A stretch of 51,572 nt of DNA from Phormidium sp. CCY1219 (GCF_035615515.1 NZ_JAJENT010000802.1:1-51572); one strand, 5' to 3'; numbered from the stretch's first letter, positions 4,179 to 45,750 are shown. Notes: generated by a model from the letters alone, not told the origin. Program-made: numbers and translations.

Positions 4179-4186
4179 TCGTCAAT

Positions 4187-4548
4187 TTTTATTAGTCAAT
4201 TGTCATTGGTCATTGGTCATATTGGTCATTGGTCATATTGGTCATATTGGTCATTGGTCATATTGGTCATATTGGTCATTGGTTTTGGGGTGTAGGGTGC
4301 GTCACCCCCGCCACCCTATCACACAAATCAACCAATCCCCGACGGGGGTGACGCACCGATTCCCGTGCGGCTCATTGGTCAATTGTCATTGGTCAAGTGT
4401 CATTGGTCATATTGGTTATATTGGTCATTGGTCATATTGGTCATTGGTCATCTGGTAACAGGTCATTGGTACTCCTTCAAAGGACAAATGACAAATGACA
4501 AATGTCCAATGACAAATGTCCAATGACAAAGGACAAATGACAAAAATC
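4187..4548. repeat. STRR2-type heptamer array (TTGGTCA / CATTGGT units), composite. Forward units lie at 4196-4285 and 4373-4470, and reverse-orientation units (TGACAAA) at 4480-4548.
   Basis: Many tandem copies of cattggt / catattggt, then the mirror-image run atgacaaatg / aaggacaaatgac. The same heptamer family and the same junction motif (GGTACTYC..CAAAGGACAAA) recur at 45528-45750. Confidence 0.85.
4296..4357. other. GC-rich perfect hairpin embedded in the STRR array (15-bp stem, 32-nt loop)
   Basis: ggtgcgtcacccccg (4296-4310) is the exact reverse complement of cgggggtgacgcacc (4343-4357). Confidence 0.6.
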
Positions 4549-19109: not shown

Positions 19110-19149
19110 CATATGCCGCAGTTAAGCGAATTAGCAGGGAACTACAGTT

Positions 19150-21636: not shown

Positions 21637-21652
21637 ACTAATGCACTGATTT

Positions 21653-22432
21653 GTGTTTCTATTTTCTATGATGAAACTGCTGATTCACTTGTTATTTGCG
21701 AGCGTCATTGCTCTTGCCAGTATGCTGAGGCTCCCTGCTTCCATGAGTACGGAAATGGGGGGACAACAAGTAGCCCAAGAGACAGAACCAACAGATCCAG
21801 GAACACCAAAAGGAACATCTGAACCAGCGGGAACCCGACCCGAATCAACTTGTCCGCCAACGGAAACACCTCTAACAGCCATTAATCATGGAAACGAGAG
21901 TGATTTTACCCTAGCGGAATATCCGATTTTTTTCTTTTATAATCCTTATTCCCGCGAAAATCTGGATGCCATTGAATTTTCCCTCTATGACAGAGCCGAA
22001 CGCCGCACTATTTATAGAACTGAGATAGAACCCCGTGAAAATCCAGGAATTATCCAACTGAGGATTCCCGAACAGGCTGATTATGGCTTAGAGGTTAATC
22101 AAACCTATCGGTGGTATCTTACCGCCTATTGTTCCGAACGCCGTACTGATGGCCCGGATGTGGAAATTAACGGCTGGATTCATCGCAAACCGATGACGGA
22201 ACAACTGGAGGCTGAGCTAGAAAATCCCTCGATTCCCCAATACATCACCTATATGAATGAGGGAATTTGGTACGATGCCGTTAGCCTTCTCGCCCAAAGT
22301 TATGCATCTAATCCACAGAACCAAACATTTAAAGAAGCGTGGGAGAATTTGTTGCAAGCGTTAGGTAGAGAACACTTGAGTCAAGAGCCATTGATTAACC
22401 CGGTGGTGAGTGGAGGAGAGGCAGACGAGTAA
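21653..22432 (+). CDS. secreted protein, DUF928-like (tentative)
   Basis: Signal peptide MMKLLIHLLFASVIALASM. About 230 aa remain in the mature part. It lies 16 nt after the CHAT-CHASE2 gene. Confidence 0.45.
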   Translation: MFLFSMMKLLIHLLFASVIALASMLRLPASMSTEMGGQQVAQETEPTDPGTPKGTSEPAGTRPESTCPPTETPLTAINHGNESDFTLAEYPIFFFYNPYSRENLDAIEFSLYDRAERRTIYRTEIEPRENPGIIQLRIPEQADYGLEVNQTYRWYLTAYCSERRTDGPDVEINGWIHRKPMTEQLEAELENPSIPQYITYMNEGIWYDAVSLLAQSYASNPQNQTFKEAWENLLQALGREHLSQEPLINPVVSGGEADE

Positions 22433-22542
22433 TACCTTGTTGGTAGCAAATCTCTCAATCTAAGATTTTCTGGTGTAGGGGCAATTCATCAATTAAACCT
22501 ACACTATTAATTGAGGCGCTATCCTCCTGGGGATTTGGACGT

Positions 22543-28300: not shown

Positions 28301-29843
28301 TTTCAGCGCGATCGCTAACGATTAACCCTCCCGTGTTGATGGTAATGTTACCTGCTTCTCCGGTTGCATTTGGCGCAACAAAAGCGGCTATTCTGCTCCG
28401 ATTTAATTCTCCACGGGGATTGGTAATGCCGCCACTGATTTCCAGCAATCCTGTATTTTCAATAGTCAAATTTCCGGCATTTCCACTGGCTGATGTGGAG
28501 GTAGAAATCACAGCGCCGTTCAGAATGGTTAAGCGATCGCTGCGAATGGTGATATCTCCCGCAGTTCCCGTTGCTGGAATGGGATCGATCCGCCGGAGTG
28601 CAACAATACTTAACAAGCTGCTCGGGCCGACTGGAGAAGCTCCGCTTAATTCTATTTCGCCAGCGTTAATCTCTAAATTTCCACCCCGTCCTCCAGCATA
28701 GGTACTGGTCGAAATTTGTGCGCCATTTCGGACTGTTAAGCGATCGGCTTCAATTGTTAAATTGCCAGCATCACCCGCTCCTTCCGTTTGATTGAATAAA
28801 CCGGCTGCCAGTGGAGGTGGAGGTTCTGCACCCGCTGGAATATTGGGAGGAATTGGTCGTGGTAAAAAACCACTCACTTCGATTTCTCTTCCTTGAATGG
28901 TTACATCTTGTCCCGGTGCGAAACCATAGGTGCTACTGGTAATTCCTGAATTTTCCACAATCAGGCGATCGCCGCGCACTTGAATCGCACCCCCTCCCCC
29001 GCGTGCATTGGGAAACATTGGCGGCAAACTGCTGGCATCTACCACAGAATTATTGATAACTTGAATGTTACCAAACTGTTCTATTTCCTGATAAGACAAT
29101 GAAAATCCTGTCTCTGCGGGGGCTAAATTGACGGTGCCATTCACCACACCACCCAGTTCGATTCGTCCTTCTAATGCGGCGAGGTTCCCATTATTTAAAC
29201 TAACCTCTCCCCCCACCAAACCCAACGTTTGTCCCGGCGCAACAGCCAACCCTAACGGCGCACCAATGCTATTGACGGGAAATTGTTCGGGAGTTGCTTG
29301 GGATTGATTGATGATTCTGCCGGTATTGCTCTCAAATTGTAATTCTGTAGGAATGCTAATGGTTAAAATGGGTGTAGTTGTGGCAAGGTCGGTGCTAAAC
29401 AAGCTACCATCGGCAAACCCAATCCGATTGGCGGTAGTTGCTAAAAACGATCCACCGATTCGTAATTGAGCGTTGGGTCCAAAAATAATCCCATTGGAAT
29501 TGATTAAAAATAAGTTTGCAAACCCATTGGCACTCAAAATTCCATCTATATTTGAGATTGAATCTCCGGTGATGCGAGAAAAGATATTTTGGATGGCGGG
29601 AGAATTGTTAAAAAAAGCGCTGCCATTAGTGGGGATAGAAAATTCCTGGAAGCTATGGAAGAGATTGCCGCCTCGGATGGTTCCCCCGTTAATCTCGAAG
29701 CGGTTCCCGTCAGAATTGATGAGGGAATTGTCGGGAAGGGTGGTATCGGGGACAATTTGAGGAAATGCTGGAGTAGCGATCGCTACAATCGCTAGAGAAA
29801 AACCGCTCAAAAACCAGCACCCTGAAAACGCATTGGGTTTCAT
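25311..29843 (-). CDS. two-partner-secretion protein carrying both a TpsA-type TPS (haemagglutination-activity) domain with beta-helix passenger and a C-terminal TpsB (ShlB/FhaC-type POTRA + beta-barrel)
   Basis: Signal peptide. TPS domain NGGTIRGGNLFHSFQEFSI..NIFSRITGDSISNIDGILSANGFANLFLINSNGIIFGPNAQL. Long Gly/Asn-rich beta-helix repeats. POTRA (LTFTELQEAAEAIATFYEQQGYI..), then a beta-barrel ending ..YFSVRWNPF. Confidence 0.8.
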   Translation of the reverse strand: MKPNAFSGCWFLSGFSLAIVAIATPAFPQIVPDTTLPDNSLINSDGNRFEINGGTIRGGNLFHSFQEFSIPTNGSAFFNNSPAIQNIFSRITGDSISNIDGILSANGFANLFLINSNGIIFGPNAQLRIGGSFLATTANRIGFADGSLFSTDLATTTPILTISIPTELQFESNTGRIINQSQATPEQFPVNSIGAPLGLAVAPGQTLGLVGGEVSLNNGNLAALEGRIELGGVVNGTVNLAPAETGFSLSYQEIEQFGNIQVINNSVVDASSLPPMFPNARGGGGAIQVRGDRLIVENSGITSSTYGFAPGQDVTIQGREIEVSGFLPRPIPPNIPAGAEPPPPLAAGLFNQTEGAGDAGNLTIEADRLTVRNGAQISTSTYAGGRGGNLEINAGEIELSGASPVGPSSLLSIVALRRIDPIPATGTAGDITIRSDRLTILNGAVISTSTSASGNAGNLTIENTGLLEISGGITNPRGELNRSRIAAFVAPNATGEAGNITINTGGLIVSDRAEITALTTGTSTGGNININTRNLTVLEGGQISVLTVGSGRGGILNLNASETLELLGTDADGLPSGAVSQSRPDPRVPVAQLGDAGDITVSADRVIVGDGAAISSDTFGNGQGGSVIINADSVEVTGRSAIPPTEPLPSRDPDGLLPSRITVITTGTGNAGSLSITTEQLNIEDRAKVAVDAALGGGAAGNLQIISPEFRLETGRLTAETASGEGGNVIVESDNMFLRRQSEISTTAGTANLPGNGGNININTEIIAALENSDISANAFDGSGGVINITAEGIFGLEPRSREELENVLDADLSQFDPTIDLPDTSDITAISRTDPTLSGQIALNTPDIDPSRGVVELEDEIVDVASLVDRDPCRIVQNSEFVQTGKGGIPASPTDPLTPREGWEDWRVLQLEETPATEEPLPNTPSPVPPRRILKIEATGMRINDRGELELIAPDAATPLTNQSSLSPGCLSAQQPKTLVTTPVASVPETLTVARFELRDSSALSPEQLAAITEPYTNRNLTFTELQEAAEAIATFYEQQGYIGSGAFLPPQIVRDRVVTIQAIENRLEDIRVIGNSRLTNQYATYVRNRLGLNPGDIVNTDTLLESLYLLQFDPRLETISAELAAGIEPDTSFLAVSVEKARFFSPQLAIDNGRSPSVGSLRRQAQLTQYNLLGLGDIATFNYANTDGSNNLDFGYALPLTPNNGTLTFRYSTGDSKIVEPPFDEVDIEANSRTYELSYRQPIIQRIIPKSPNQSLQDASNLIRTELALGITASRRESETSLLGVDFPLSPGANNNGETRVSAIRFFQDALWQDSQQIFAARSEFSLGVGWFDATVNDNEPDSRFLAWRGQGQWVRRLDGLGVTGGTDPLLILRGDIQLATNSLLPLEQFSVGGFNSVRGYRQDALLVDNGAFASVELQYPIVQFPQLQGSLQVIPFVDLGVGWNWDEGDRANPDKNTLLSTGLGLQLQLGNDFSARLDWGLPLVEIDSRDRTWQENGVYFSVRWNPF

Positions 29844-30951: not shown

Positions 30952-33900
30952 TTAAGGTAAAGCTTCTACAGTAACCTCTACGAATCCAGCACTTCCTCCC
31001 GAACCGGAACCGGAATTCAATACTGTCGGTTCTCCATCAATAATCGCAGCAGAAATCCAGTCATTCGTTCCCGCTATCCGATACCACAAGGAGCTAGACT
31101 GTCCTAACTCTGCGGAATAATCCACAAAGTCACCTTCCGTCCATTTGTCAAAGGTTAAGTTCGTTCCGTAGGGATATTCATTAACTTTTGGAAAACTGGT
31201 TCCTGGGCCAGAACGGACATTCGCCCCAATGGTTGATAGGGTACTTCCGGTAAAGTTAACTGTTTCCCATGATAGATCGAACTCTGCACCACCCCGTTCT
31301 TCATAAAAGTCCGCATAGACTTCATAAACTCCATCTTCAGGAACGGTAAAATCAACGACTTTAGCCCCGCCATATTGTTGTTGCCATTGATTTTGTGGCG
31401 TCATGTAAACCCATTCATTCGTGGTCTTATTTTTCGCGAGTAGCTGGAATCCATCATCCCCGCGTACAAATGCGCGATAGTGGCGACCCGCTTCTAGATT
31501 TTCTTCCGTATAGGCGCGAATGGCAAAGTTATTATCGGGCAAGCGCACATCATTTAACGCCGCAGATTCTCCCCAATTAAAGCTAATCCCTTTTTTACCA
31601 TCAGTGCGAGTATCCGATCCTAAATTAACCACACCGATCGCATTGGTCGGATCTCCACCATTGGCAAAGTAATCTCCCGCCGGTTGATTTCCCAGTTTGC
31701 GATCCCACCAGTAGAATGTGGAGTGCCATTCTGGGGATGGGTTCACTGCATCTTGGAAAAATTGAGCTTCTTCTACTGTAAAGTCAACCACACTATCAAT
31801 CCCTAGCTCGTAATAATCCACATAGAAATCATACTCGCCAGTTTCCGGTACTTTAAAGAAAATGGTTCGAGAAGGCATAGTTGTCTCGCGAGGACGCCAA
31901 TCGGCACCATCTCCTCCTAAGACGACACTATCATCAATCCATTCCCCTGTTTCAACGTTCTTAACCCGGAACCAGACGCCATCATCAGATTGCGTGGTAA
32001 TTTTATACAATTGGCCGGCTTCAAACGTAGTGCGCGTCCAAGCTTCCATTGCAAAATCATCATTTTGCACAGCACTATCGGGACTACCAGTATCCCAATC
32101 TTTGAACAAACTTAGCTTGCCATTTTGAGATTGATTTCCTAGATCGAGAATGGCTGCGGGATTGGTGAAATCGTAGGTACTGCGATCGCTGACATTTTCA
32201 GGAGTGCGATTAATAAACCGGGCATTCCAGTGGGTTGTGGGGATGGCATAGTTGGCAATTTCCACCGTTCCACTCTCATCGGTTCCGATCGTATAAGCAT
32301 CGTCTGCGGTAAGCGTCAGTTCTACTGTTTCATCTTCTTCGTCGAAGAGGGTATCGTAAATCGGATTAATATTAATCGGTGCCGAGTTTTGTCCTGCGCC
32401 AATCGTGACTGTACCTGTTAGCGGTTGATAGTCTTCTCCATTGGTAGCACTACCAGCGATCGCATAATTCACCGTCAGCGGATTTTTGGTATTCCCGGTG
32501 CGCGTTACGGTAAATTGACCTGGAGTGCCATCTTCTGACGCATTGGGTTGCGTCGCAGCAATGGTAACGGTGGGAGGAGTACCGTACAAATTCAGTTGCC
32601 ATGACAACCATTCCCCTTCGATTTGATTGCCTTTTTCGTCGTACACCTCTAACGTCCATTCTCCCAGAGAAGATTCACCCCAATGATGAATTGAGGTAAA
32701 TGTCCAGTGATTCGATCCGGGGTGAACTTCGTAGGTTTTGCCAATCCCATAAGGATCGTCGGGAATCGAGTTCATCAAGCGGGATTCGGTGCCATCGGGG
32801 GACTTGAGAACGATGGTTAAGTCTTTCCAGTCTGCATGGTCGATATCAACCAAAACCTCTGCATGTTCCACGGTGATATCTTTGGCGATGGAGATGGAAT
32901 CCGCCAGTGCTTCGTTATCTCGGATTTCACTGAGGACATTTTTCAGTTTATTCTTGCCGCTGACTTTGATTTCTTCTCCCACTGTGGTCCAATCTTTCGC
33001 CGCCGTCACCGCCGCTACCGGATCTACTGCACCAAATCCATAGTGCTCATTGATGTGATATCCTCCGCCATTCTGCTGCCAATCGGGATGAGTGTTATCG
33101 GTTTTATAGGCGGTTTTGGCGAGGATATGCTGCACGTCTCGTGAGGTTAAATTGGGATTGGCTTCTAACATTAAGGCAATCACACCGGAAACAAACGGTG
33201 CCGCCGCCGATGTGCCGCCAAAGTCAGTCACCCTGCGCTGATTGAGTGCGATCGCAGTGGTGGTAATTCCCTCTCCATCCCCAGTTCCACTATCAGAGTA
33301 TGCTACCACAAATGGTGCTTGGGTGCTATATTCCGAAAGAATGCCTTCGCGAGAAATGGCACCGACAGGAATTACGGCGCGAGAATTGGCTAAATTATTG
33401 TAGTTGACATGACCAATTTCTGCGCCATCATTTCCCACGGAGAATACATAATTATTCCCTAGTCCATTTCGACCGAATTTAAACCCAGAGTCTAAGGCAG
33501 CGATCGCCAGGGGAAGTTGCCGCATATATTGCGGCCCCCAGCTATTATTAAACACATCAATTTCCTGGTTGCGATTTAGGCGTTCTTCGGACTGTTTTGC
33601 ATCAAACAAGGCATCGGCGATCGTATAACCTTGAGAATCATAGCTATAGTTCACGGGGTCGATACTTCCAATCAGCCTAAGCGCGGCAAATTCCGCTTCT
33701 GGCGCAACTCCAAACACTCTATTTCCGCCTGCTTTACCCACTCCTGTCACTAAAGTGCCATGAGGATTTGCAACTTCCAGTTCCACCGACCAAGACTTTA
33801 TTTGATTGGTAATCTGTTGGAGGAATTTTGGTGGATTTTTGTGGTAAGCATCCACGGAAATTTCTAAGTACCACAATCCCGCAGCATAAGTGCCTTCAAA

Positions 33901-36696
33901 CCAATTATCTAACGATAAGTTTACCGATTGGCTGCCTTCCTGAACCCCTAACTTTTTGAATTGGGTTGCGCGAGAGTCCTCCCACCCCGGAAAACTCCAC
34001 CAATAACCTGCAAAAGATTGCCAGTCAAATGGGTCTTTTTCGGTGTGAGTGGGACTGTACAACCGAAACTCTGCCTCGTCAAGAGATAATGGTTTTTTGC
34101 CCTTGAACTCTAAGTTAAAATTCGTATCCATTACCAGTCCAGTTAAATTAACCGGAACGGGTAACAACACCCGATTGCCATCGATAACGGGTTTGCCAAC
34201 ATCTCCCTCAAATCGCTGTTGCGATCGCGGGGATGGATCGGCATCGAGATCGGTAAAATCCCAACTTATATTGGGGTTATACCGAGGAAGCAATTCGGGA
34301 TGTCCATAATAGACCCCATCGTCCACAATCCCGATCGTTGCATTTCTACCTCTGATGGGTAAATTCGTCACTGGATCGATGATTTCCCAGGCATCAGTAA
34401 CACTAGAAGAAGCGCTGGAATTGATATCTGACCACAAGTTCCAGTGATCCTTAAACCAATCCTCCGATAGGGTACTCATCAATTTCATGGGAACCGGCAC
34501 CTCTGGATAGGCAAATTCCACTCCGTCGAGTTCGGCGAGGAGATTGGCGATATATTCCGGAGTGGTTTTCGGTTTTGACCCTTCGGCAAATTCCCATATA
34601 TAAGTATTGGGAATCTGGCCCGTTTCTCCCAAATTCACCGCACCCACTGATGCGGCTAGTTCCTCCGCCGATTCCCCCGGCGTGACCCACACTACCCATT
34701 CCCGAGTGTCGGCTAATTCTTCAGCGGTGTAGCGATTCAAATTGGCGGCACCAGCAATATCTAATTTCAGTTCTTCTGATAATCCTTCTCTACCAGGATC
34801 GGTAATGACGGCAAAGTTTTCAGTGGCAATATTGCTTTCCGCACCTTGTTTATCCCAAGCAATGGCTCGCAGTTCGTAGCTACCCGGTTCTAAACTGCTC
34901 AATTCGTAACTAAAGGCAAACCGACTCGTTCCACTACTGCCCGGAGTGAACTCCGTCACTTCCCCGACATCCAACCACGCCCCGCCGATTTTACGCATGG
35001 AAAATTCGATGCGATCGAGATCGCTGATGCCATCGGCATCGAAAACTTTACCGCCTTCAAAACTCAGGGTTTCGCCGTTCGTATAAAGGGGGAAAATACT
35101 AAAGCGCAACTCTCCCGGAACCGAGTTGGGTAACTCGCCGCCTAAGCTGGGTGTCATTGGTGGCACTACGGGCAGAATGACTTCGGGTCTTTTCTCCGTC
35201 GGTGGGGAAACCGGTGGTTTATCTTCCGGTGACCCCTGGGGTGCGGGTTTTTCTGGAGTCTGTGGTGGCGCATCCACAATGGTAACTTTTTCGATCGCTA
35301 CGTTACTGGATTTGCCTGCCAAATCGTAGGCGATCGCTCTTACTTTGTACTCACCCGCCCCTAACTCCTCGTTCCACTGATAGCTAAAGTTAGCAACAGT
35401 ATCGTCTGAAGCTTTCGCCGCGAAGTTCGTCACCGAATCGATTTCCCTCCATCCTTCCCCTGGAGTTTGCAAGAACAATTCCACGCGCTGAATATCCTCA
35501 AACCCATTGCGATCTCTCACACTTCCGGCGATCGCTGTCGGTGCCCCTAACGAATCTGTTTCAACAATCCCAAACTCTAATTTTTTCGGCGGAATATTGT
35601 TATTTCCCGGTGTAGCGCTCTCCGGAACCTGGATTTCTGGCGTCGGAGTTGGTTGCGGCTGATTGTTTTCCTCGGTTTCCGATGTGGGTTCCTCGGTTTC
35701 CGATGTGGGTTCCTCGGTTTCTGGTGTCGGTTCCTCGGTTTCTGGTGTCGGTTCCTCGGTTTCCGATGTGGGTTCCTCGGTTTCTGGTGTCGGTTCCTCT
35801 ATTGCGGGTTGAGGGGCGATCGCATCTTCTGGATCTTTCTCTACATAAATAACGATATCTTTTGTATTGCCATCGTTATCCTGCTTTCCTCCTTCTCGTT
35901 CCAGGGTGAAAAGCGTCCCTTCTTCAGTTTCCTGTTGCCGAAAATGGAAACCGCCACCAGAATTCGTATCTAGGGAAAACACCGGACGATTGTTGCCATT
36001 CAGTTTATTCGGATTGTCGAATACCTCCTGAATCGTTCCTTTCGGAACCATCATCAATCCAAACTTATCCCCGGCTTCCATCGAGAAAGTCTGGCTGGTG
36101 CGATATTTTACCCCGTCTAACTCTTCATTTAACTGATTTTCCCAAGGGAAACTGCCGCTGACAGAGGAGGGTTGACTTGACTGAGAAATTAACTGTTGTC
36201 CCAAATGGGAATTACTCAATACTCGTCGGGCTACTTCTTGAGAGTAAGCGGCTGAATCCGGGGCGAATTGTTCCATCCCCTTCAGACTAAACAAGCCAAT
36301 TTCGCGATCGTGCTTATCCGCGTAGGCAATCTCGACTTTTACTTCTGTATCCTTCGTTACCACAGAACCGGGTTTTAGGGGCGATCCCGTAATCGGATCG
36401 ATGTTCAGGGTATAAGCCGTATCGCCATCGCGTCGCAGAATTTCCAGGGAATAGTCTCCGGGCAATAAATCGTTGAGGGTAATGACACCCGCTGCATCGG
36501 TGAGTGTTGATGTCCGCAGAATTGTCCCCGCCGCATTGCGAAGCACCATTTCCACATCGCTTTCCAATCCAGTTACACCCAATCTCCAACTCCCCACTTC
36601 TCCCACTTGAAACAGGTAATTATCCTCGGGGTAGAGAGCGAGTACCGAGTCGCTGTAGTTGTAGTTATTTGTCAGTAAACCCAAGTCGATTGACAT
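30952..36696 (-). CDS. giant multidomain subtilisin/kexin-like S8 protease: N-terminal PPC-like and DUF4114-like domains, PT-rich linker, S8 domain, P-domain, Calx-beta, two PA14-like domains, SH3b
   Basis: S8 Ser motif GGTSAAAPFVSGVIALM. P-domain DITVEHAEVLVDIDHADWKDLTIVLKSPDGTESRLM. Calx-beta TVTIAATQPNASEDG..VELTLT. PA14-like GQLYKITTQSDDGVWFRV / RHYRAFVRGDDGFQLL. SH3b ANVRSGPGTSFPKVNEYPYGTNLTF. There is no obvious signal peptide. Confidence 0.85.
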   Translation of the reverse strand: MSIDLGLLTNNYNYSDSVLALYPEDNYLFQVGEVGSWRLGVTGLESDVEMVLRNAAGTILRTSTLTDAAGVITLNDLLPGDYSLEILRRDGDTAYTLNIDPITGSPLKPGSVVTKDTEVKVEIAYADKHDREIGLFSLKGMEQFAPDSAAYSQEVARRVLSNSHLGQQLISQSSQPSSVSGSFPWENQLNEELDGVKYRTSQTFSMEAGDKFGLMMVPKGTIQEVFDNPNKLNGNNRPVFSLDTNSGGGFHFRQQETEEGTLFTLEREGGKQDNDGNTKDIVIYVEKDPEDAIAPQPAIEEPTPETEEPTSETEEPTPETEEPTPETEEPTSETEEPTSETEENNQPQPTPTPEIQVPESATPGNNNIPPKKLEFGIVETDSLGAPTAIAGSVRDRNGFEDIQRVELFLQTPGEGWREIDSVTNFAAKASDDTVANFSYQWNEELGAGEYKVRAIAYDLAGKSSNVAIEKVTIVDAPPQTPEKPAPQGSPEDKPPVSPPTEKRPEVILPVVPPMTPSLGGELPNSVPGELRFSIFPLYTNGETLSFEGGKVFDADGISDLDRIEFSMRKIGGAWLDVGEVTEFTPGSSGTSRFAFSYELSSLEPGSYELRAIAWDKQGAESNIATENFAVITDPGREGLSEELKLDIAGAANLNRYTAEELADTREWVVWVTPGESAEELAASVGAVNLGETGQIPNTYIWEFAEGSKPKTTPEYIANLLAELDGVEFAYPEVPVPMKLMSTLSEDWFKDHWNLWSDINSSASSSVTDAWEIIDPVTNLPIRGRNATIGIVDDGVYYGHPELLPRYNPNISWDFTDLDADPSPRSQQRFEGDVGKPVIDGNRVLLPVPVNLTGLVMDTNFNLEFKGKKPLSLDEAEFRLYSPTHTEKDPFDWQSFAGYWWSFPGWEDSRATQFKKLGVQEGSQSVNLSLDNWFEGTYAAGLWYLEISVDAYHKNPPKFLQQITNQIKSWSVELEVANPHGTLVTGVGKAGGNRVFGVAPEAEFAALRLIGSIDPVNYSYDSQGYTIADALFDAKQSEERLNRNQEIDVFNNSWGPQYMRQLPLAIAALDSGFKFGRNGLGNNYVFSVGNDGAEIGHVNYNNLANSRAVIPVGAISREGILSEYSTQAPFVVAYSDSGTGDGEGITTTAIALNQRRVTDFGGTSAAAPFVSGVIALMLEANPNLTSRDVQHILAKTAYKTDNTHPDWQQNGGGYHINEHYGFGAVDPVAAVTAAKDWTTVGEEIKVSGKNKLKNVLSEIRDNEALADSISIAKDITVEHAEVLVDIDHADWKDLTIVLKSPDGTESRLMNSIPDDPYGIGKTYEVHPGSNHWTFTSIHHWGESSLGEWTLEVYDEKGNQIEGEWLSWQLNLYGTPPTVTIAATQPNASEDGTPGQFTVTRTGNTKNPLTVNYAIAGSATNGEDYQPLTGTVTIGAGQNSAPININPIYDTLFDEEDETVELTLTADDAYTIGTDESGTVEIANYAIPTTHWNARFINRTPENVSDRSTYDFTNPAAILDLGNQSQNGKLSLFKDWDTGSPDSAVQNDDFAMEAWTRTTFEAGQLYKITTQSDDGVWFRVKNVETGEWIDDSVVLGGDGADWRPRETTMPSRTIFFKVPETGEYDFYVDYYELGIDSVVDFTVEEAQFFQDAVNPSPEWHSTFYWWDRKLGNQPAGDYFANGGDPTNAIGVVNLGSDTRTDGKKGISFNWGESAALNDVRLPDNNFAIRAYTEENLEAGRHYRAFVRGDDGFQLLAKNKTTNEWVYMTPQNQWQQQYGGAKVVDFTVPEDGVYEVYADFYEERGGAEFDLSWETVNFTGSTLSTIGANVRSGPGTSFPKVNEYPYGTNLTFDKWTEGDFVDYSAELGQSSSLWYRIAGTNDWISAAIIDGEPTVLNSGSGSGGSAGFVEVTVEALP
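35647..35810. repeat. 21-bp tandem repeat encoding the EEPT(S/P)ET heptad linker
   Basis: ggtttccgatgtgggttcctc and ggtttctggtgtcggttcctc units repeat about 7 times. Confidence 0.8.
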
Positions 36697-37395: not shown

Positions 37396-38526
37396 ATGGC
37401 GATCGATATCTATGTTCCATCGGAGTTCGACAATTTCGAACCCGAAGAGGTTAAACTTTATAATCTCGTCAACGAATATCGTGCTGAAAATGGCTTGCCT
37501 ACCATTCCGGCATCCAAAGCTCTGTCTCTGGTTGCCAATCGGCACGTTCTGGATTTAGCCGAAAATATTGGAGAAGTGACCCACGACTGGAGCGATGTTT
37601 CTTTTTCCAACAATCCAGAGGCGATGTGGAACGCTCCTGAGCGATTTAATACCGGTTATCCCGGTATTGGCTACGAAAACGTTACCGGATTTGAGGGATT
37701 TAATGGACCGACGATAACCGCAGAACAAGCAATCAGTTCTTGGAAAAACAGCAATACAGGTCATCGGGAAACAATCCTGAATCAACTCGGCCCCAATGGC
37801 GACTGGCGAGACAACCAGTGGAATGCTTTGGGCGTTGGAATGCATGAGGGATATGCCGTTTTGTGGTTTGGCGAAGAGGTCGATCCCACGGGAGAACCAA
37901 CACGAGATCCAGTCTCGGAGGAGACGCCTCCACTTCCAGAGCCACCACCGCCGCCAACGCTACCAACACCGCCACCGCCACCGCCACCACCCGCACCAAC
38001 ACCTCCGCCCGATCCTCCAGAGCCGGTACCGCCTCCAGAGCCGGTACCGCCGCCGATTCCAGAGCCACCACCGCAGCAGAAGGCAATTTACCGTTTTTTC
38101 GATACGGTAACGGGAACTCACTTTTACACGGCTTCGGCAGAGGAACGGGATAACGTGAGGAATACGTTGCCGCGATATGATTACGAAGGACCCACTTTTG
38201 CGGCTCCTGCTGTACCCTCGGCTGAAACGGCGTCGATTCACCGCTTGTTCAATACGGAAACGGGAACGCATTTTTTCACGATTTCTCAAGAGGAAGTGAA
38301 CCAAATTCGCGCGAATTTGCCGCAGTATGTTTACGAAGGGATTGCTTACGAGGCGTATCCGGAAGCCGTCGCCGGTACTGCGCCACTGCATCGGTTTTTT
38401 AATACGGAAACCGGGACGCATTTTTTCACGCCATCGGCACAGGAACGGGACGCGGTAATGGCGAATTTACCGATTTACGACTATGAAGGGATTGCCTATT
38501 ATGTCAATGAGATCGGTTTGTTTTAA
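37396..38526 (+). CDS. CAP (SCP/PR-1-like) domain protein with a Pro-rich linker and three C-terminal DUF5648-type repeats
   Basis: CAP motifs HVLDLAEN .. SSWKNSNTGHRETILN .. ALGVGM. PPPPP linker. Three repeats of the type YRFFDTVTGTHFYTASAEERD..YDYEG. Confidence 0.7.
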   Translation: MAIDIYVPSEFDNFEPEEVKLYNLVNEYRAENGLPTIPASKALSLVANRHVLDLAENIGEVTHDWSDVSFSNNPEAMWNAPERFNTGYPGIGYENVTGFEGFNGPTITAEQAISSWKNSNTGHRETILNQLGPNGDWRDNQWNALGVGMHEGYAVLWFGEEVDPTGEPTRDPVSEETPPLPEPPPPPTLPTPPPPPPPPAPTPPPDPPEPVPPPEPVPPPIPEPPPQQKAIYRFFDTVTGTHFYTASAEERDNVRNTLPRYDYEGPTFAAPAVPSAETASIHRLFNTETGTHFFTISQEEVNQIRANLPQYVYEGIAYEAYPEAVAGTAPLHRFFNTETGTHFFTPSAQERDAVMANLPIYDYEGIAYYVNEIGLF

Positions 38527-38851: not shown

Positions 38852-38983
38852 AAACCCTTCCCCTAGTCCTTGTCATGCGGACTATAGCCCGCTTCGGGCA
38901 TGGCTACGCTAACGCCTGCACAGGCGCGATTTCAATCCCCCGAGTGATGTTTGCACGCGCCGCATGTTTGCACGATCGCGATT

Positions 38984-41900
38984 TCAATCTTCTGCCTCAT
39001 GTTCCACCGCACCCAACGCCTTCAGGGTGGATTTTTGCGCCTCAGTCAGCCCGATCGCGCCAGTGATATTCATTCCGGCATAGGGCTGATTCACGATCGC
39101 CTGTACGCAGTCTCCGGAGGGCACCTCCCACAGTTTCATCCATTCATCTTCACTGCCCGACACCAGGCGATTTCCCTGGGGATGAAATGCCAGGGAGAGC
39201 ACTGCACTGGGATGCGCTTGCCAACTGGCGACAGATTCGCCGCGCTGGATATCCCACAGATATATCCGACCCTCCTCGGTTCCCGAGGCGAGGGTATTGC
39301 CATCCGGGCCGATCGCGATCGCCACCACGGACTCGCAACGCTGTATGGTTTTCACACATTGTCCACTGGCGACCTCCCAGACATTTATCGTGCCATCATC
39401 AGTTCCGGAAACCACCCGTTTGCTATCCCACGCAACGCCTACGGATATCACTTTACTGGTATGTCCGGGGAAATTCGCCACACAGACACCGGTGTCGATG
39501 TTCCACAGTTTCACGGCGCGATCGGCACCGCCAGACGCCAGGGTGTTGCCATCGGGGGCGATCGCCACTGCGCCGACTGCACTGGCATATCCGGATCGGG
39601 TGGCGATACACTGGCCGGTTGTCCGGTGCCAACGTTTTACGGTGCCCTCGGCGCAGAGACTGACCAGGGTTTCTTCCCCGGGGGCGATCGCCACTGCCAT
39701 CACTTTACTGTGGTGTCCGGCGAAGGTTTTGGCGCACTGGCCTGTTCTCACATTCCACAGTTTCACCAAGCGATCGGCACTTCCCGAGGCGAGGTACTCC
39801 CCGTCGGGGGCGATCGCCACGGCTGTCACCGCACTGGCATATCCGTGAATCGTCCGCAGGCACTCGCCGGTGCGAATGTGCCACAGTTTCACGGTTTCAT
39901 CCGCACTAGCGGAGGCCAGGGTTTGCCCGTCGGGGGCGATCGCTACCGACCCCACGCGGTTGCTATGCCCGGTCCAGGTTTGCAAACACTCGCCGGTTTC
40001 GAGGTCCCACAGTTTCACGGCGCGATCGGCACCGCCAGACGCCAGGGTTTTCCCATCCCGGGCCACATCCACGGACCACACGGAGCTACTATGTTCTGCC
40101 AAGGTTTGGCTACAAGTGCCGCTCTGGATATCCCACAGTTTCACGGTTTCATCCGCACTGGCACTCACAACGGTTTTCCCATCTGGGGTGACGCCCACGG
40201 AGAGCACCCAATCAATATGTCCCTGCAAGGTTTTCAAGCAATCTCCGGTGGGGATATCCCACAGTTTCACGGTTTGGTCTCCACTGCCACTCACCAGGGT
40301 CTTGCCATCGGGGCTGATGGCTACGGACCACACCACACTCGCATGTCCGTACAGGGTATGCAGGCATTCCCCAGTCTGCAAATCCCACAGTTTCACCGTG
40401 CGATCGGCGCTACCGGTGGCGAGGGTTTTGCCATCTGGGGAGATGCGGGCGCAGAGGACGCGACTGGTATGCCCTGTCAAGGTTTTGATACAATTCCCGC
40501 TCTGCACTTGCCACAGTTTCACCGTGGTGTCATCGCTGGCGGACACCAGGGTGTTCCCATCCGGGGCAACGGCGAGGGACCACACTGCCCCCGCATGTCC
40601 GCTATAGCGCCAGATGGGCTTGCCATCGGCTACCTGCCACAAGTATATATCTCCCGGCTGGTCTCCTGTAGCACAATATTGACCGTCTGGGGTAAAGGCC
40701 ACGCTCAGTACCATGCCGAACAAGTTGGCGAATATACATTGTGATACCGTGGCCTCGGCAAAATTGGTATTTCGCAAACTGGCATGGCTGAAATCCCCCC
40801 CGACCACCACGGTTTGACGCAAATCGCGATCGTCCAAGGCATTGGGGTTGAGTTGCAACAGCAAGGCGATCGCATTCGCCCCGAGATACCCCACTTCGGT
40901 TTCGGTTTGACCTTTGGTTCCCTCCACGAGCTGCAATAACCGCGCTTCCGTGGCGGATCCGGGGGCGATCGCGGGCAATAATAAATCTAGCACTGCTTTC
41001 GTCAGGGGCGATCGCCCGAAGGTTTCGCGCAAGGGTTGGGAAAATGGATAATTCTGAATATCCCCCAGTTCGGCAAAATCCGGCGCTAATACCCCCAATT
41101 GCGCCGCCAACTTATACGCCACAAAAAACTCCAATAAGGAGCGATGGGCTGGGGCATAATCTCCATCCGCATTGCGAATTAACATGGTTTGCCCCATCAT
41201 ATCATAATGCCAGTGGTCTAAATCTTTTTGCTGCTGCACCACCGGGCCGAATAACTGACGAATGCGATCGGGAAATTCGCGATAGTTCAAACTCATGCGA
41301 TCGCCGGCGAGCATTTCCCACGACAACTCGCACAGGAAAAATAACTTATCCGCCATCGACGTAAACGTGCGCTCGGTTTTGATATCCCGCTCCATCTTTC
41401 GGCGCACTGCATACCAATAGATTCGCGCCAAATCAATCGGCTTGCCCGACTCGATTTCCGGTAAGGCTTCTAAAATTAATTCAATCATCACCGGGCGACG
41501 GGCTAAATCCACCAATTGCGGATGACTCATCACCTTCTCCACAATCTCCGGGCTAGCGCGTTTCCCCAACACTTCCCCCACCCGTTCTGACTGAAATTTT
41601 TCTAATTCCAGCACCTCAAATTGGGGGGTTTCCCCCGTTAAATTCGATGTAGATGCCTTTAACTCGGCATTGAGCAAATCTCGCCCTTCCCGCGCTTCTG
41701 GGAAATGCTCCGTGCGACAGGTTAAAATCACTTTCGAGCCGGGAACCACCACTTTGGCCAATTGCCAAAAATTATTAATCATTTCTTGGCGATCGACTTT
41801 GGCTGCCATTTCGTCGAACCCATCAAAAATTAGCAGCAATTTGCCCATCCGGTTGAGGCGATCGAAGGCAGAATATCCGGGCAAACCGATTTCGTGCTTG

Positions 41901-43231
41901 CGGAAGAAAAACTCGGAAAATAACGATTCTACGCTTACGGCTTTGGCATAGTCGCGTAGGGGAATCACCAAGGGAAGCCGGGGCCGGATGCTTCCTTCTT
42001 CCTTGGCGACGCGATATTTTTGTAAGGTTTGCCAAGCATAATGGAGGGCAAACCAGGTTTTCCCGGTGCCGAATTCGCCTAAAATGGAAATATGTTCTTT
42101 GGCCGGGTCGTCTAACCAGCGATTGATATAGCGATCGATCCACCCGTTGCGACCATCGTAGCGGCTTTTTGCAAGTCGTTTTTTGCTTATCGGATCGAGT
42201 TCTTCTTTGGTGCAGGCGAGGGGGACGTAGAGTTCTTCGATGTGACGTTTTTTCACTTCGGCTTCTAACCACTGGAAGTAACCGCTAAAGTCGGCGGATT
42301 CGTCAATCAGTTCGTCGAGGGTGTAGCAGAAGAGTTGGGGGTCGTTTTCTACGGCATCGACTGCGGCTTGACTGATTCGCCGGGGGGCAACTAACCATCC
42401 TTCATCGACTTTTTGTCGGTCTACTACTTGGCCTAAATCGTAAACGTCGCGGATGGTGACTTCGCCTTCGATACCGCGCACTAAAATGCGATCGAATCCG
42501 CGTCGGGCGCGGATGTTAATTATCCATTCAAAATACTTTTCGGTGATGACTTGGTAGGTCTCAAAGTCGTACAATGATTCGAGCCAGTCTCGCACTTGGT
42601 GGGCAAATGCGGAGGGAAGGCGTTTCTCGGCAGGATCCGGATTGGCTAATAAGGGGTTCGGATCGCTTTGGGTGAGTTTGGCGAGGTCTTGGCGAATGTC
42701 TTCGAGGGCGTTAAGATTGTTGAGTTGGTCTAAAATTTGGGAGGTTCTTTGGTTTAAGTCTTCGATTTTGCGAAATTGCAGGACTTCGGCGGGGGTGCGG
42801 GTGCGGTTGGTAATGTCCATAAAAATGGCGCTAAATTTTGCCAATTCGCGCTGATGTTCGATGCCTTGTTCGCGGATTTTGTCTCCTAAGGCGTAGCTGT
42901 AGATGTAGTCTTCGGCTTCTTGGAGCAAGCGACTGGGGTCGTTGCGATCGAAGGCGTTGCGAAAGGCTTGTTGAATTTCGATTTGGCGAAACAGTTCTAA
43001 AATCAATCGCAGTTTTTCGACGCCTACATGTTCGAGTTTTTCTAGTCCGTATTCCACTAAGGTATAGCGATAAACGCCGGTAAAATCCGCTGGGGGATGA
43101 TCGGGATCGAATTGAAAGCGTTTGAGTAGTTTGATGACTAATTCGTTGCGTTGCGCGGTGTTGATGATGACGGGGGTTGCGGTGCGCGCGATCGCCAATA
43201 TTGCTCGAATGATTTCGTCAGTTCCGACCAT
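38984..43231 (-). CDS. STAND NTPase: unassigned ~360-aa N-terminal domain, NACHT, short pentapeptide-like linker, ~14 WD40 repeats
   Basis: Walker A ILGEFGTGKTWFAL and Walker B LLLIFDGFDEM. The C-terminal half consists of ..GH...V.SV.FSPDG..LASGS.D.T.KLWD.. units. Confidence 0.85.
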   Translation of the reverse strand: MVGTDEIIRAILAIARTATPVIINTAQRNELVIKLLKRFQFDPDHPPADFTGVYRYTLVEYGLEKLEHVGVEKLRLILELFRQIEIQQAFRNAFDRNDPSRLLQEAEDYIYSYALGDKIREQGIEHQRELAKFSAIFMDITNRTRTPAEVLQFRKIEDLNQRTSQILDQLNNLNALEDIRQDLAKLTQSDPNPLLANPDPAEKRLPSAFAHQVRDWLESLYDFETYQVITEKYFEWIINIRARRGFDRILVRGIEGEVTIRDVYDLGQVVDRQKVDEGWLVAPRRISQAAVDAVENDPQLFCYTLDELIDESADFSGYFQWLEAEVKKRHIEELYVPLACTKEELDPISKKRLAKSRYDGRNGWIDRYINRWLDDPAKEHISILGEFGTGKTWFALHYAWQTLQKYRVAKEEGSIRPRLPLVIPLRDYAKAVSVESLFSEFFFRKHEIGLPGYSAFDRLNRMGKLLLIFDGFDEMAAKVDRQEMINNFWQLAKVVVPGSKVILTCRTEHFPEAREGRDLLNAELKASTSNLTGETPQFEVLELEKFQSERVGEVLGKRASPEIVEKVMSHPQLVDLARRPVMIELILEALPEIESGKPIDLARIYWYAVRRKMERDIKTERTFTSMADKLFFLCELSWEMLAGDRMSLNYREFPDRIRQLFGPVVQQQKDLDHWHYDMMGQTMLIRNADGDYAPAHRSLLEFFVAYKLAAQLGVLAPDFAELGDIQNYPFSQPLRETFGRSPLTKAVLDLLLPAIAPGSATEARLLQLVEGTKGQTETEVGYLGANAIALLLQLNPNALDDRDLRQTVVVGGDFSHASLRNTNFAEATVSQCIFANLFGMVLSVAFTPDGQYCATGDQPGDIYLWQVADGKPIWRYSGHAGAVWSLAVAPDGNTLVSASDDTTVKLWQVQSGNCIKTLTGHTSRVLCARISPDGKTLATGSADRTVKLWDLQTGECLHTLYGHASVVWSVAISPDGKTLVSGSGDQTVKLWDIPTGDCLKTLQGHIDWVLSVGVTPDGKTVVSASADETVKLWDIQSGTCSQTLAEHSSSVWSVDVARDGKTLASGGADRAVKLWDLETGECLQTWTGHSNRVGSVAIAPDGQTLASASADETVKLWHIRTGECLRTIHGYASAVTAVAIAPDGEYLASGSADRLVKLWNVRTGQCAKTFAGHHSKVMAVAIAPGEETLVSLCAEGTVKRWHRTTGQCIATRSGYASAVGAVAIAPDGNTLASGGADRAVKLWNIDTGVCVANFPGHTSKVISVGVAWDSKRVVSGTDDGTINVWEVASGQCVKTIQRCESVVAIAIGPDGNTLASGTEEGRIYLWDIQRGESVASWQAHPSAVLSLAFHPQGNRLVSGSEDEWMKLWEVPSGDCVQAIVNQPYAGMNITGAIGLTEAQKSTLKALGAVEHEAED

Positions 43232-43636
43232 AATACCCTTCTTTTTTGTTCGCCAAAGCGATCGCCTCTCTGCGCGCTACAGTGCAGTGGTCTGTTCGGT
43301 TTCTCGGATATCCCGAACCGATTTCGAGGCCGGTGCCCCTGCGCCCCCCCCTTTCTGCCGGAAATTACAGGTTGCCATTTTGGAATATGGAGCAATGGCA
43401 AGCGGATACTTCCGAGTGGGGAATCATCACTTCGGACGTTTGGCGGGGGTCAAACCTCGACGGCAATCTCGAGACTATTTTATTATCCCACAACCGCCAT
43501 GTGCGAGGATGCCCCGGGAAAATGGCGGATCCCCACCGGGATGTGGCGCTAGAATGCGCCATCGGCGAAGGGGGGAATCTCTGCACCGGAGCGATCGCGA
43601 TTTACTATAGAATAAACCACCAGATCGAGAAAGCCG

Positions 43637-45517
43637 ATGAGTTACTGTCTCAATCCCGCTTGTCCGAATCCCCAAAACCCAGACCCCACAACGTTTTGCC
43701 AAAGTTGCGGCACGAAACTCATCTTGGCACAACGATATCGACCCCTAAAACTCATCGGTGCGGGGGGGTTTGGTCGGACGCTGTTGGCTATCGACGAGTT
43801 TAAACCCTCAAAACCGCGCTGCGCCATCAAGCAATTTTACCTGCAATGGCAACAGAATGCGGCGAAAGCATCACAATTATTCCACCAAGAAGCGGTGCGT
43901 TTGGAACAGTTGGGCAAACACCCTCATATTCCCGAACTGTTCGCCCATTTGGAACAAGACGATCGCCAATACATCGTTCAAGAATTTATCGAGGGGCAAA
44001 ATTTAGCGGATGAATTGGCAGAAAATGGTCGCTTCTGTGAGTCCAAAATTATCAGCTTGCTGCAAGATTTATTGCCGGTTTTGCACTTCATTCACCAGGG
44101 ACATGTGATCCATCGCGATATCAAACCAGAAAATATTATCCGGCGTCGCAGTGATGGCAAATTGGTGTTGGTGGATTTTGGGGCGGCAAAATATGCTACG
44201 GGTACGGTTCTGGGCAAAACCGGCACCACGATTGGCACCAAAGGCTATGCCGCACCGGAACAAACTTTTGGTAAGGCGGTATTTTCTAGCGATATTTACA
44301 GTTTGGGGGTGACTTGCATTACCCTGCTGAGCGATCGCGAACCGTTTGAGTTGTATGACGCGATGGAAAGTACCTTCGTTTGGCGGGAATATTTGGGCAC
44401 CAATTCCGTCAGCGATCGCCTCGGGCAAATCCTGGATAAGGCGATCGAAAGTAGCGTCAAGCGCCGCTTTCATTCGGCGCAAGCGGTGATGCAAGCGTTA
44501 AGTTCCCCCGCGCCGGTCAGACAGGGTAGACCCCCGCGACCGGTGGCGCGGGCGCAACCCCCTACCCGCACGCGATCGCAACCGCCAATCCCTACACCGC
44601 GCCCGCGCACTCCCCCGGTGACGATTTCGGAGTTGGGCTGTTTTGGCGGTCATCCCTCGGCGGCGATCGCCCTGGCGATCGGCCCGGACGGACGATTGCT
44701 GGTCACGGCAAGCAAAGGGGGCATCAAATGGTGGCAATTAAAAACCGGCCAAGAATTACCCACTCTTCGCACGGAGTTGTTCTCCCACTCGGCGGGCGTC
44801 CATTCGGTGACGTTTTCCCCCGATGGTCGTCTGCTGGCGGCAGGAGGTGCCAATGGAACCATCTCTGTATGGGAAGTGGCCTTTCGTCGCCAAATTCGCA
44901 CCCTCTCCGGGGGTCGCGGACCGGTCCGCTGTGTGGCGTTTTCTCGGAATGGTCGTCTGTTGGCGGCGGGGTTTGATGAGGGGGCGATCTCTCTGTGGGA
45001 TGTGGCTACATGGCGCGTTCTTCGCACCCTGGAGGGCCATTCGGGGGCGGTGAATTCGGTGGCGTTTTCCCCGGATGGTCTATTGTTGGTTTCTGGAAGT
45101 GCGGATACTTCGATCGCTCTGTGGGATGTTCGCACCGGTGAGGATAAGCAGGTGGGGTGGGGGCGATCGCGAGCAGTGAATTCGGTGGCTATTTCCCCCT
45201 GCGGTCAGTTCCTCGCCTGCGGTTGCGCTAACCGCACGATTCTCCTCTGGGATTTCCGCGCTTGGCAACAACTGATCCCCCTCACGGGCCACTCCGCTTC
45301 GGTGAATTCGGTGGCGTTTTCCCCCGATGGTCTGACCCTCGCCTCCGCTAGCGACGATACCTCGATCGTCCTGTGGGATGTGAAAACTGGTGACGAAAAA
45401 CGCACCTGCTGGGGTCGATCCGGTGCCGCCTATGCCGTGGCATTTACCCCCGATGGCGAAATCTTTGCCGGCGGTTTTGAAGATAAAACGGCGAAAATTT
45501 GGCAAGTTAAGAGGTGA
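43637..45517 (+). CDS. Hanks-type Ser/Thr protein kinase with an N-terminal zinc ribbon and C-terminal WD40 repeats
   Basis: CLNPACPNPQNP..CQSCG. Kinase motifs AIKQF, HRDIKPENII, DFG, GTKGYAAPE. Seven WD40 units. Confidence 0.9.
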   Translation: MSYCLNPACPNPQNPDPTTFCQSCGTKLILAQRYRPLKLIGAGGFGRTLLAIDEFKPSKPRCAIKQFYLQWQQNAAKASQLFHQEAVRLEQLGKHPHIPELFAHLEQDDRQYIVQEFIEGQNLADELAENGRFCESKIISLLQDLLPVLHFIHQGHVIHRDIKPENIIRRRSDGKLVLVDFGAAKYATGTVLGKTGTTIGTKGYAAPEQTFGKAVFSSDIYSLGVTCITLLSDREPFELYDAMESTFVWREYLGTNSVSDRLGQILDKAIESSVKRRFHSAQAVMQALSSPAPVRQGRPPRPVARAQPPTRTRSQPPIPTPRPRTPPVTISELGCFGGHPSAAIALAIGPDGRLLVTASKGGIKWWQLKTGQELPTLRTELFSHSAGVHSVTFSPDGRLLAAGGANGTISVWEVAFRRQIRTLSGGRGPVRCVAFSRNGRLLAAGFDEGAISLWDVATWRVLRTLEGHSGAVNSVAFSPDGLLLVSGSADTSIALWDVRTGEDKQVGWGRSRAVNSVAISPCGQFLACGCANRTILLWDFRAWQQLIPLTGHSASVNSVAFSPDGLTLASASDDTSIVLWDVKTGDEKRTCWGRSGAAYAVAFTPDGEIFAGGFEDKTAKIWQVKR

Positions 45518-45527
45518 ATTGGGTGTT

Positions 45528-45750
45528 GGTCATTGGTCAATTGTCATTGGTCATTGGTCAATTGTCATTGGTCAATTGTCATTGGTTATTGGTACTTCCA
45601 CAAAGGACAAACCACATTGGACAAACCACATTAGTCATTGGTCATTGGTAATTCCACAAAGGACAAATGACTAAGGACAAATGACTAAGGACAAATGACT
45701 AAGAACAAATGACTAAGGACAAATGACTAAGGACAAATGACTAAGGACAT
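45528..45750. repeat. second STRR2-type composite array (forward CATTGGT units, junction GGTACTTCCACAAAGGACAAA, then reverse AAGGACAAATGACT 9-mers), filling the whole convergent intergenic gap
   Basis: Same unit family and same junction motif as 4187-4548. Confidence 0.85.

Follow-up and report, generated by a model that had tools for sequence, protein, structure and literature searches.

A clade-11-type NACHT-WD40 gene of Phormidium sp. CCY1219, its two-domain N-terminus and its neighboring kinase gene

Introduction

A 51,572-nt stretch of DNA from the cyanobacterium Phormidium sp. CCY1219 (NZ_JAJENT010000802.1, positions 1–51572; the whole stretch is called the window below) contains a gene for a 1415-residue NACHT-WD40 protein that is transcribed divergently from a gene for a protein kinase with WD40 repeats. 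This locus raises the question of what the NACHT protein carries at its N-terminus and whether the two genes form a unit of antiviral defense. The original prediction, made from the sequence alone, had proposed an unassigned helical N-terminal domain and a likeness to bacterial defense sensors. Our analysis showed that the observation itself was largely correct and that the interpretation behind its interest was not, because the N-terminus consists of curated Pfam families, the architecture has been published, the pairing with the kinase is local synteny, and the scanned neighbors of the orthologues showed no consistent defense-island context. We consider it reasonably probable that the gene encodes a stand-alone, single-polypeptide NLR-like bacterial NACHT receptor with the architecture of NACHT clade 11 (Kibby et al., bioRxiv 10.1101/2022.07.19.500537), working by the mechanism proposed below.

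Domain organization of the NACHT-WD40 protein

The claimed divergent pair was confirmed in the list of open reading frames (ORFs) and their translations. It consists of a 1415-residue ORF on the minus strand (38984..43231, with the stop codon at 38984–38986) for the NACHT-WD40 protein and a 626-residue ORF on the plus strand (43637..45517) for a protein with a 4-Cys prefix, a Ser/Thr kinase domain and WD40 repeats, with a spacer of 405 bp between the two start codons. On the plus strand, a 597-residue ORF (38951–40744) runs opposite to the WD40 region and was regarded as a spurious reading frame. The 1415-residue protein is a tripartite protein of the NLR/STAND type, and its gene is made up as follows (pLDDT, predicted local distance difference test).

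38984..43231, minus strand: complete gene for the 1415-residue NNH5/NA-iREase1/NACHT/pentapeptide/double-WD40-propeller protein (ORF list, translation)
42791..43222, minus strand: NNH5, residues 4–147 (Pfam PF22736, E=2.3e-44)
42608..42790, minus strand: linker, residues 148–208 (AlphaFold2 secondary structure and pLDDT)
42302..42607, minus strand: NA-iREase1, residues 209–310 (Pfam PF22722, E=1.6e-34)
41684..42091, minus strand: NACHT nucleotide-binding domain, residues 381–516 (Pfam PF05729, 31.6 bits)
40826..41683, minus strand: region of the NACHT module behind the nucleotide-binding domain, residues 517–802 (conserved in all complete orthologues)
40730..40825, minus strand: short pentapeptide-repeat element, residues 803–834 (Pfam PF00805)
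39125..40729, minus strand: WD40 repeats (Pfam WD40, repeat table)

Relatives were found by a pattern scan with one genome per species, which gave at least 538, and the locus comparisons refer to the best 80 of these (L001–L080). The NACHT domain scored 31.6 bits against a Pfam cut-off of 26.7 (E=1.7e-7). Its Walker A motif, GEFGTGKT (residues 385–392, 42056–42079), fits GxxxxGK[ST], and its Walker B motif, FDGFDE (residues 469–474, 41810–41827), stands in the context LLLIFDGFDEM, where D-G-F-D-E at 470–474 fits D[GAS]hDE, the signature that separates NACHT from other STAND NTPases (Kibby et al.). The score and both motifs confirm the claim that the protein is a STAND NTPase. Residues 517–802 have no Pfam model of their own, though they are conserved across the complete orthologues; going by the module definition of Kibby et al., they presumably form the helical and winged-helix portion of the NACHT module. 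The pentapeptide element between this module and the propellers is a marginal match (20.9 bits against a cut-off of 20.2, E=2.6e-4). The C-terminal part holds 13 WD40 repeats of 42 residues in perfect register (residues 825–1369, Pfam E=5.8e-126), a number that suffices for two propellers; the mean pairwise identity of the units is 0.41, and 126-bp tandem repeats at 40046–40396 are the trace of these units at the DNA level. The double propeller is the putative sensor of the protein.

The identity to the orthologues was highest in the NACHT nucleotide-binding domain (75–86%, with a median of 75% across orders), lower in the iREase domain (58–78%) and in NNH5 (52–75%), and lowest in the WD40 repeats (42–61%). 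A protein in which a fixed switch is combined with a diversifying sensor would be expected to show such a gradient.

The N-terminal region

The N-terminus had been claimed to be a helical domain of about 360 residues with no assignable motif. Instead, it consists of two curated Pfam families, the helical NNH5 (PF22736) and the alpha/beta domain NA-iREase1 (PF22722), and a single new helical domain of 360 residues is ruled out by the Pfam matches together with the AlphaFold2 model. NNH5, the "NACHT N-terminal helical domain 5", scored 151 bits against a gathering cut-off of 27. The model of the two-domain region, for which 53 homologues were used, reaches 83.9 in mean pLDDT and shows eight helices in residues 4–144, a long helix in 147–187, a disordered or low-confidence segment in 189–203 and the alpha/beta domain in 208–312. 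The linker segment was detected by phmmer in the closest clade only. When the two-domain model was compared with the PDB by Foldseek, only endonuclease-fold matches were found, and this search gave no structural homologue of NNH5. A sequence search for solved homologues of the N-terminus gave none that was significant (best E=0.09), and matches to phycocyanin-beta at E of about 0.3 were judged to be due to chance.

The second domain has the restriction-endonuclease (PD-(D/E)xK) alpha/beta fold. The curators of PF22722 named it "NACHT-associated inactive restriction endonuclease 1", so that one of the two N-terminal families is annotated as an inactive, non-effector restriction-endonuclease fold; a match of this kind had been named as a refutation of the original prediction and has largely come about. 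No lysine in residues 205–320 is conserved in 85% or more of the 53 members, in agreement with the label "inactive", and strand 3 reads D-R-I-L-V-R-G where the (D/E)xK motif is expected. Glu235 is invariant and Asp247 is conserved in 50 of the 53 members; the two acids lie where strands 2 and 3 begin, and seven conserved arginines lie in a stretch of about 50 residues. The Mrr_cat model (PF04471) stayed below its cut-off on NA-iREase1 (12.5 bits against 21, E=0.16). An hhalign comparison with the nuclease of bNACHT25 aligned only the C-terminal strand-helix, at a probability of 1.7%, which does not fix the catalytic register. Judged from these residues, the nuclease activity of NA-iREase1 has probably been lost; the domain may still bind metal or nucleic acid.

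Family membership and previous description

The order of NNH5, NA-iREase1, NACHT, pentapeptide and beta-propeller is one that Kibby et al. list under NACHT clade 11 (Table S1), where Calothrix parasitica WP_096653106.1 and Acaryochloris (marina) WP_083776698.1 are examples with the same architecture. The exact architecture of the 1415-residue protein is therefore already published. Identity of architecture would place the protein in clade 11, and clade-11 proteins such as these two share its domain order, its phylum and its Walker B signature and show no architectural difference from it. Ahead of the iREase-NACHT-pentapeptide-propeller core, other clade-11 proteins carry EAD4, HTH, caspase, PNPase, SIR2, TIR plus calcineurin, or trypsin domains (Kibby et al., Table S1). 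The suggestion that the N-terminus is the position of the effector was thus right in outline. The variability of this front slot indicates that NNH5 stands in the variable output slot and that the endonuclease-fold domain is part of the constant core.

The best 80 of the at least 538 relatives are all cyanobacterial and, judged by the record names, nearly all from filamentous lineages. Searches by phmmer with segments of the window protein found the full architecture, at 1393–1570 residues, in most of the complete loci, and a few loci are truncated, split by a frameshift or without propellers. The closest clade comprises Laspinema, Oscillatoria sp. HE19RPO and Phormidium pseudopriestleyi, whose NACHT proteins are 68–74% identical to that of the window; an exact copy of the window protein is not on record. 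A word-indexed protein search for the family returned matches of at most 627 residues, many of them partial, against genes of about 1500 residues in the loci, and for this reason the full-length architectures were taken from the genome loci; the short entries may stem from the database or from the way the genes were called. For one of them, a 513-residue entry (P0080), NACHT and many WD40 families are listed.

The gene in the window is a clean, intact and full-length example of the NNH5/iREase/NACHT/WD40 architecture in chromosomal context. The gene call was correct, but because the family had been catalogued already it adds little. What remains of interest is the role and the unmatched fold of NNH5, which occupies the slot that is filled by caspases, sirtuins or TIR domains in related receptors.

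Comparison with known immune receptors

Apaf-1 is an AP-ATPase/NB-ARC protein and not a NACHT protein, and the N-terminal domains of HET-E and HET-D, on one side, and of TEP1, on the other, are a HET domain and a TROVE domain. The fungal HET-E/HET-D and the metazoan TEP1 resemble the window protein in their NACHT domain, in their C-terminal WD40 propellers of highly similar 42-residue repeats and in their NLR-like mode of working. However, they differ from it in their N-terminal domains, have neither an iREase domain nor NNH5, and belong to separate NACHT clades, with HET-E/HET-D in clade 18 and TEP1 in clade 16 (Kibby et al.). The original prediction's likeness to a TEP1/apoptosome-like layout does not hold at this level.

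A likeness to Avs-type sensors had also been proposed. PADLOC gave only a WD40-driven match to HEAT-ARM_XIII and weak matches at chance level for the 1415-residue protein, and none to an Avs model. The window protein shares with Avs/AVAST the layout of a single-protein STAND receptor, in which a slot for an effector lies at the N-terminus and a sensor made of repeats at the C-terminus, but it has WD40 repeats instead of a TPR-like sensor, no recognized enzymatic effector and, in the neighbors scanned, no consistent defense-island context. With bNACHT01 and bNACHT25, which were tested by Kibby et al., it shares the NACHT switch and the tripartite logic of effector, NTPase and sensor, and bNACHT25 has an N-terminal restriction-endonuclease-fold domain as well. 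In contrast to the window protein, bNACHT25 (clade 6) and bNACHT01 (clade 14) are enterobacterial, have short C-terminal domains instead of propellers and lack NNH5. The nuclease of bNACHT25 is an active Mrr-like restriction-endonuclease effector, in which the D48A substitution abolishes toxicity (Kibby et al.), whereas NA-iREase1 of the window has no conserved lysine.

NNH5 as a mobile module

An exhaustive HMMER search with NNH5 alone among 1.84 billion proteins gave 298 representatives at E≤1e-3, and among the matches listed NNH5 was N-terminal in nearly all of 150 representatives. The sampled NNH5 proteins included one architecture in which NNH5 precedes NB-ARC/AAA_16 and TPR and another in which it precedes NACHT with no iREase domain; DUF4062 can stand in for NNH5, or follow it, ahead of the same iREase-NACHT core. 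Two library representatives have an internal NNH5, in the orders EAD1+CHAT+NNH5+Macro and ParA-like+NNH5+NACHT+pentapeptide (P0126, P0183). In Symploca sp. SIO1B1 (protein P0105, locus L081, 7062–8480), NNH5 is fused to a kinase-like domain 40% identical to the kinase of the window; because HRH and NFG replace HRD and DFG in it, this domain is probably a pseudokinase. An NB-ARC-TPR protein is encoded about 3.7 kb from P0105 in the same locus. In locus L082 (218–4821), a small protein of NNH5 and DUF4384 is encoded 30 nt upstream of a 1196-residue TPR-CHAT protease, and the two are possibly a two-gene unit with NNH5 on a separate subunit.

The re-use of NNH5 before different STAND NTPases marks it as a mobile helical module of cyanobacterial STAND and conflict-type proteins, and such a module suits an adaptor or output role. 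Its re-use before different NTPases and its presence on separate small proteins beside CHAT proteases also suggest that homotypic NNH5–NNH5 recruitment is possible. A more specific proposal, which we put forward only tentatively, is that NNH5 might be a new non-enzymatic, proximity-activated death or adaptor domain that executes or relays the output of several classes of STAND receptors (NACHT, NB-ARC/AAA_16) and would correspond in cyanobacteria to CARD/PYD, to fungal HeLo or to plant CC domains. As an autonomous module of this kind, NNH5 would lengthen the list of NLR output domains that are common to multicellular bacteria and eukaryotes.

The divergent kinase gene and the neighborhood of the orthologues

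The original prediction had described the neighboring gene as a kinase with WD40 repeats, and this description was borne out by the following features.

43232..43636, no strand: divergent spacer between the NACHT gene and the kinase gene, in which the closest clade keeps two conserved blocks, each close to the start of one of the genes (spacers of L001, L002 and L005–L008 aligned)
43637..45517, plus strand: kinase gene, 626 residues, neighbor of the NACHT gene
43643–43720, plus strand: 4-Cys prefix (NCBIfam NF045510, 4Cys_prefix_kin, 43.4 bits against a cut-off of 24)
43739–44488, plus strand: Ser/Thr kinase domain, Hanks-type (Pfam Pkinase, E=5e-37)
44489–44611, plus strand: Pro-rich linker of the kinase
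44612–45505, plus strand: seven WD40 repeats of the kinase (Pfam WD40, seven matches)

The catalytic motifs of the kinase are intact (GAGGFG, AIK, HRD, DFG, APE). With its 4-Cys prefix, intact Hanks-type kinase domain and seven WD40 repeats, the gene resembles the cyanobacterial 4-Cys-prefix Ser/Thr kinases with WD40 repeats. Against the NCBIfam equivalog kinase models, which include those of defense kinases such as MAD6 and PglW, it scored far below all cut-offs. Its match to the PADLOC model PD-T4-6 (E=6.5e-126) covers only model positions 1–292 of 450, that is, the kinase core and the prefix. The divergent spacer contains one sigma-70-like match (43457–43486), which is a match to the consensus only; in related genomes the spacer is 580–1150 bp long and is enlarged by inserted repeats.

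A kinase-WD40 gene lies beside the NACHT gene in all seven closest-clade loci with an upstream flank (L001, L002, L004–L008) and in none of the 60 remaining loci whose upstream flank is 3 kb or longer, so that the pairing is a property of the closest clade and not of the family. In this clade, six genes are collinear: an ORF at 50478, an ArsP permease, a GGDEF protein, a histidine kinase, the kinase and the NACHT gene. The adjacency of the kinase is thus explained by ordinary synteny, and the 4-Cys/kinase/WD40 gene is most likely an independent signaling gene kept in synteny within one clade.

When 549 proteins flanking the NACHT gene in the 80 loci were clustered all against all, no family-wide partner gene emerged and synteny was seen only at the level of clades; the NACHT-WD40 family has no obligatory partner gene. 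The 115 nearest neighbors of the other 72 loci were also scanned with PADLOC and Pfam. In raw counts, they were heterogeneous, with PIN proteins (14), CHAT proteins and lactate/malate dehydrogenases (4 each) and Uma2 proteins (3) among them, and PADLOC models occurred sporadically, with at most three members per model. These scans found no recurring defense system beside the orthologues, which in this sample largely lacked the consistent defense-island context that an antiviral reading had led one to expect.

Proposed mechanism and alternative explanations

In the mechanism that we propose for the stand-alone receptor, the double C-terminal propeller would hold the receptor in an autoinhibited state as long as no protein ligand, viral or endogenous, is bound. 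Binding would permit NTP-dependent oligomerization of the intact NACHT module, and oligomerization would gather the N-terminal NNH5 domains. NNH5 would be the output element, most likely as a non-enzymatic, proximity-activated adaptor or effector, and the lysine-less endonuclease-fold domain would be a fixed structural or ligand-binding collar ahead of the NTPase and not a DNase. By analogy with related bacterial NACHT proteins, which protect E. coli from phage (Kibby et al.), such a receptor may serve phage defense or regulated cell death in filamentous cyanobacteria. Several points weigh against this proposal. The orthologues are not consistently found in defense islands. The NACHT gene behaves like a well-conserved gene with vertical inheritance, its identity to the orthologues (68–74%) being close to that of the neighbors in its syntenic block (63–73%); this is less typical of defense genes with fast turnover. 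NNH5 is sometimes internal, behind real effectors (EAD1+CHAT) or a ParA-like domain, and in this position a connector role fits as well as an effector role. Glu235 and Asp247 have been retained at the positions expected for the pair of catalytic acids in a PD-(D/E)xK site. In addition, the bNACHT proteins in the first part of Table S2 of Kibby et al. are all from Proteobacteria, and no tested protein is known to have this architecture.

The two conserved acidic residues also bear on a different assignment of the output, in which the endonuclease-fold domain would be a working non-canonical nuclease or a nucleic-acid-binding effector of the Mrr type, like the effector of bNACHT25 (Kibby et al.), and NNH5 would be a regulatory cap. 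The placement of the acids at the starts of strands 2 and 3, the seven clustered arginines, which would suit a polyanionic ligand, and the Pfam Mrr_cat matches that precomputed annotation gives for some members of the family are consistent with this assignment. Nevertheless, the lack of a conserved lysine, the Mrr_cat score below the cut-off, the comparison with bNACHT25 that aligns only one strand-helix and the curators' own naming of the family argue against it, as does the position of the iREase domain behind bona fide effectors (caspase, SIR2, TIR) in clade 11, which makes it a constant structural part and not the output. We consider this assignment quite unlikely. Another explanation moves the output to the neighboring gene: the NACHT protein and the divergent kinase would form a functional two-gene module, in which the kinase is either the output recruited by the NACHT oligomer or a regulator of the NACHT protein by phosphorylation. 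The retention of the pair in all seven closest-clade loci, with a kinase identity of 66–68%, the fusion of NNH5, in Symploca P0105, to a kinase-like domain that belongs to the same cyanobacterial subfamily, the listing of protein kinases as one kind of effector domain found fused to bacterial NACHT proteins (Kibby et al.) and the PD-T4-6 match would all be compatible with such a module. It is nevertheless very unlikely, given that the adjacency is missing in all 60 other loci with 3 kb or more of upstream flank, that four further genes past the kinase are collinear as well, and that the kinase shares neither NNH5 nor any other domain with the NACHT protein except generic WD40 repeats. Moreover, the kinase-like domain of P0105 is probably inactive, the PD-T4-6 match concerns only the generic kinase part of that model, and the equivalog models of defense kinases stay far below their cut-offs.

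A further explanation keeps the NACHT-WD40 protein as a single-polypeptide sensor and removes its immune role: it could be a signaling scaffold with a housekeeping task in filamentous cyanobacteria, such as sensing the state of an endogenous protein in development or stress. The wide occurrence of the family, with its at least 538 relatives in species-representative genomes and its best 80 among cyanobacteria of nearly exclusively filamentous record names, would suit such a role. So would the high conservation of the NACHT nucleotide-binding domain across orders, the setting of the gene among signaling and housekeeping genes and not among mobile elements or defense genes, and the merely scattered occurrence of defense genes near the orthologues. 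On the other hand, clade-mates with the same core carry effectors of conflict systems (caspase, SIR2, TIR, PNPase), NNH5 is found together with CHAT, EAD1 and Macro domains, the immediate neighbors are most often PIN toxins (14 of 115), which points to variable regions, and the sensor propellers diverge fastest. We regard a housekeeping role as unlikely and favor the NLR-like receptor.

Flanking genes and repeat arrays of the window

The NACHT/kinase pair has an ordinary chromosomal setting in the window. It is flanked by genes for a secreted S8 subtilase, a CAP/DUF5648 protein, a histidine kinase and a GGDEF protein, with LigA and RmlD at a greater distance. The kinase gene is followed by two tandem arrays.

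45526–45593, no strand: STRR2-type heptamer TTGGTCA array, 9.7 copies (Tandem Repeats Finder and sequence)
45659–45749, no strand: 14-mer array AAGGACAAATGACT, 6.5 copies (Tandem Repeats Finder and sequence)

The heptamer TTGGTCA is, as we take it from the literature on cyanobacterial STRR (short tandemly repeated repetitive) sequences, the STRR2 consensus. Together, the two arrays (45526..45749) fill the convergent spacer between the stop codon of the kinase and the histidine-kinase gene. The block had been described as bounded by STRR2 repeats; an array is present on the kinase side, and the other side is not bounded. A second cluster of STRR2-type tandem arrays derived from TTGGTCA lies at 4174–4544 in another intergenic spacer. 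This similar array rules out the idea that the repeats mark a block boundary and shows that the TTGGTCA array is a generic intergenic repeat of the genome, not specific to the kinase locus.

Directly downstream of the NACHT gene, a plus-strand gene (37396–38526) encodes a protein with a CAP (cysteine-rich secretory) domain and DUF5648, joined by a Pro/Gly-rich repeat linker that is encoded by DNA repeats at 37941–38051; this gene is absent from the syntenic loci of the Laspinema clade. A minus-strand gene (30952–36696) encodes a 1914-residue protein of secreted type that combines S8 subtilase, proprotein-convertase P-domain, Calx-beta, DUF4114 and SH3 domains; the gene contains in-frame 21-bp tandem repeats at 35668–35799. 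Farther away, at 15776–29843, lies a series of genes such as conflict or cell-surface systems of cyanobacteria typically contain. The series comprises genes for a sigma-70 region-4-like protein (15776–17659), a DUF1822 and HEAT protein (17649–19109), a CHAT and CHASE2 protein (19150–21636), a DUF928 protein (21653–22432) and a TPR-CHAT protein (22543–25359, minus strand), and a single 1510-residue ORF (25311–29843, minus strand) in which a TPS secretion domain is joined to POTRA and ShlB transporter domains.

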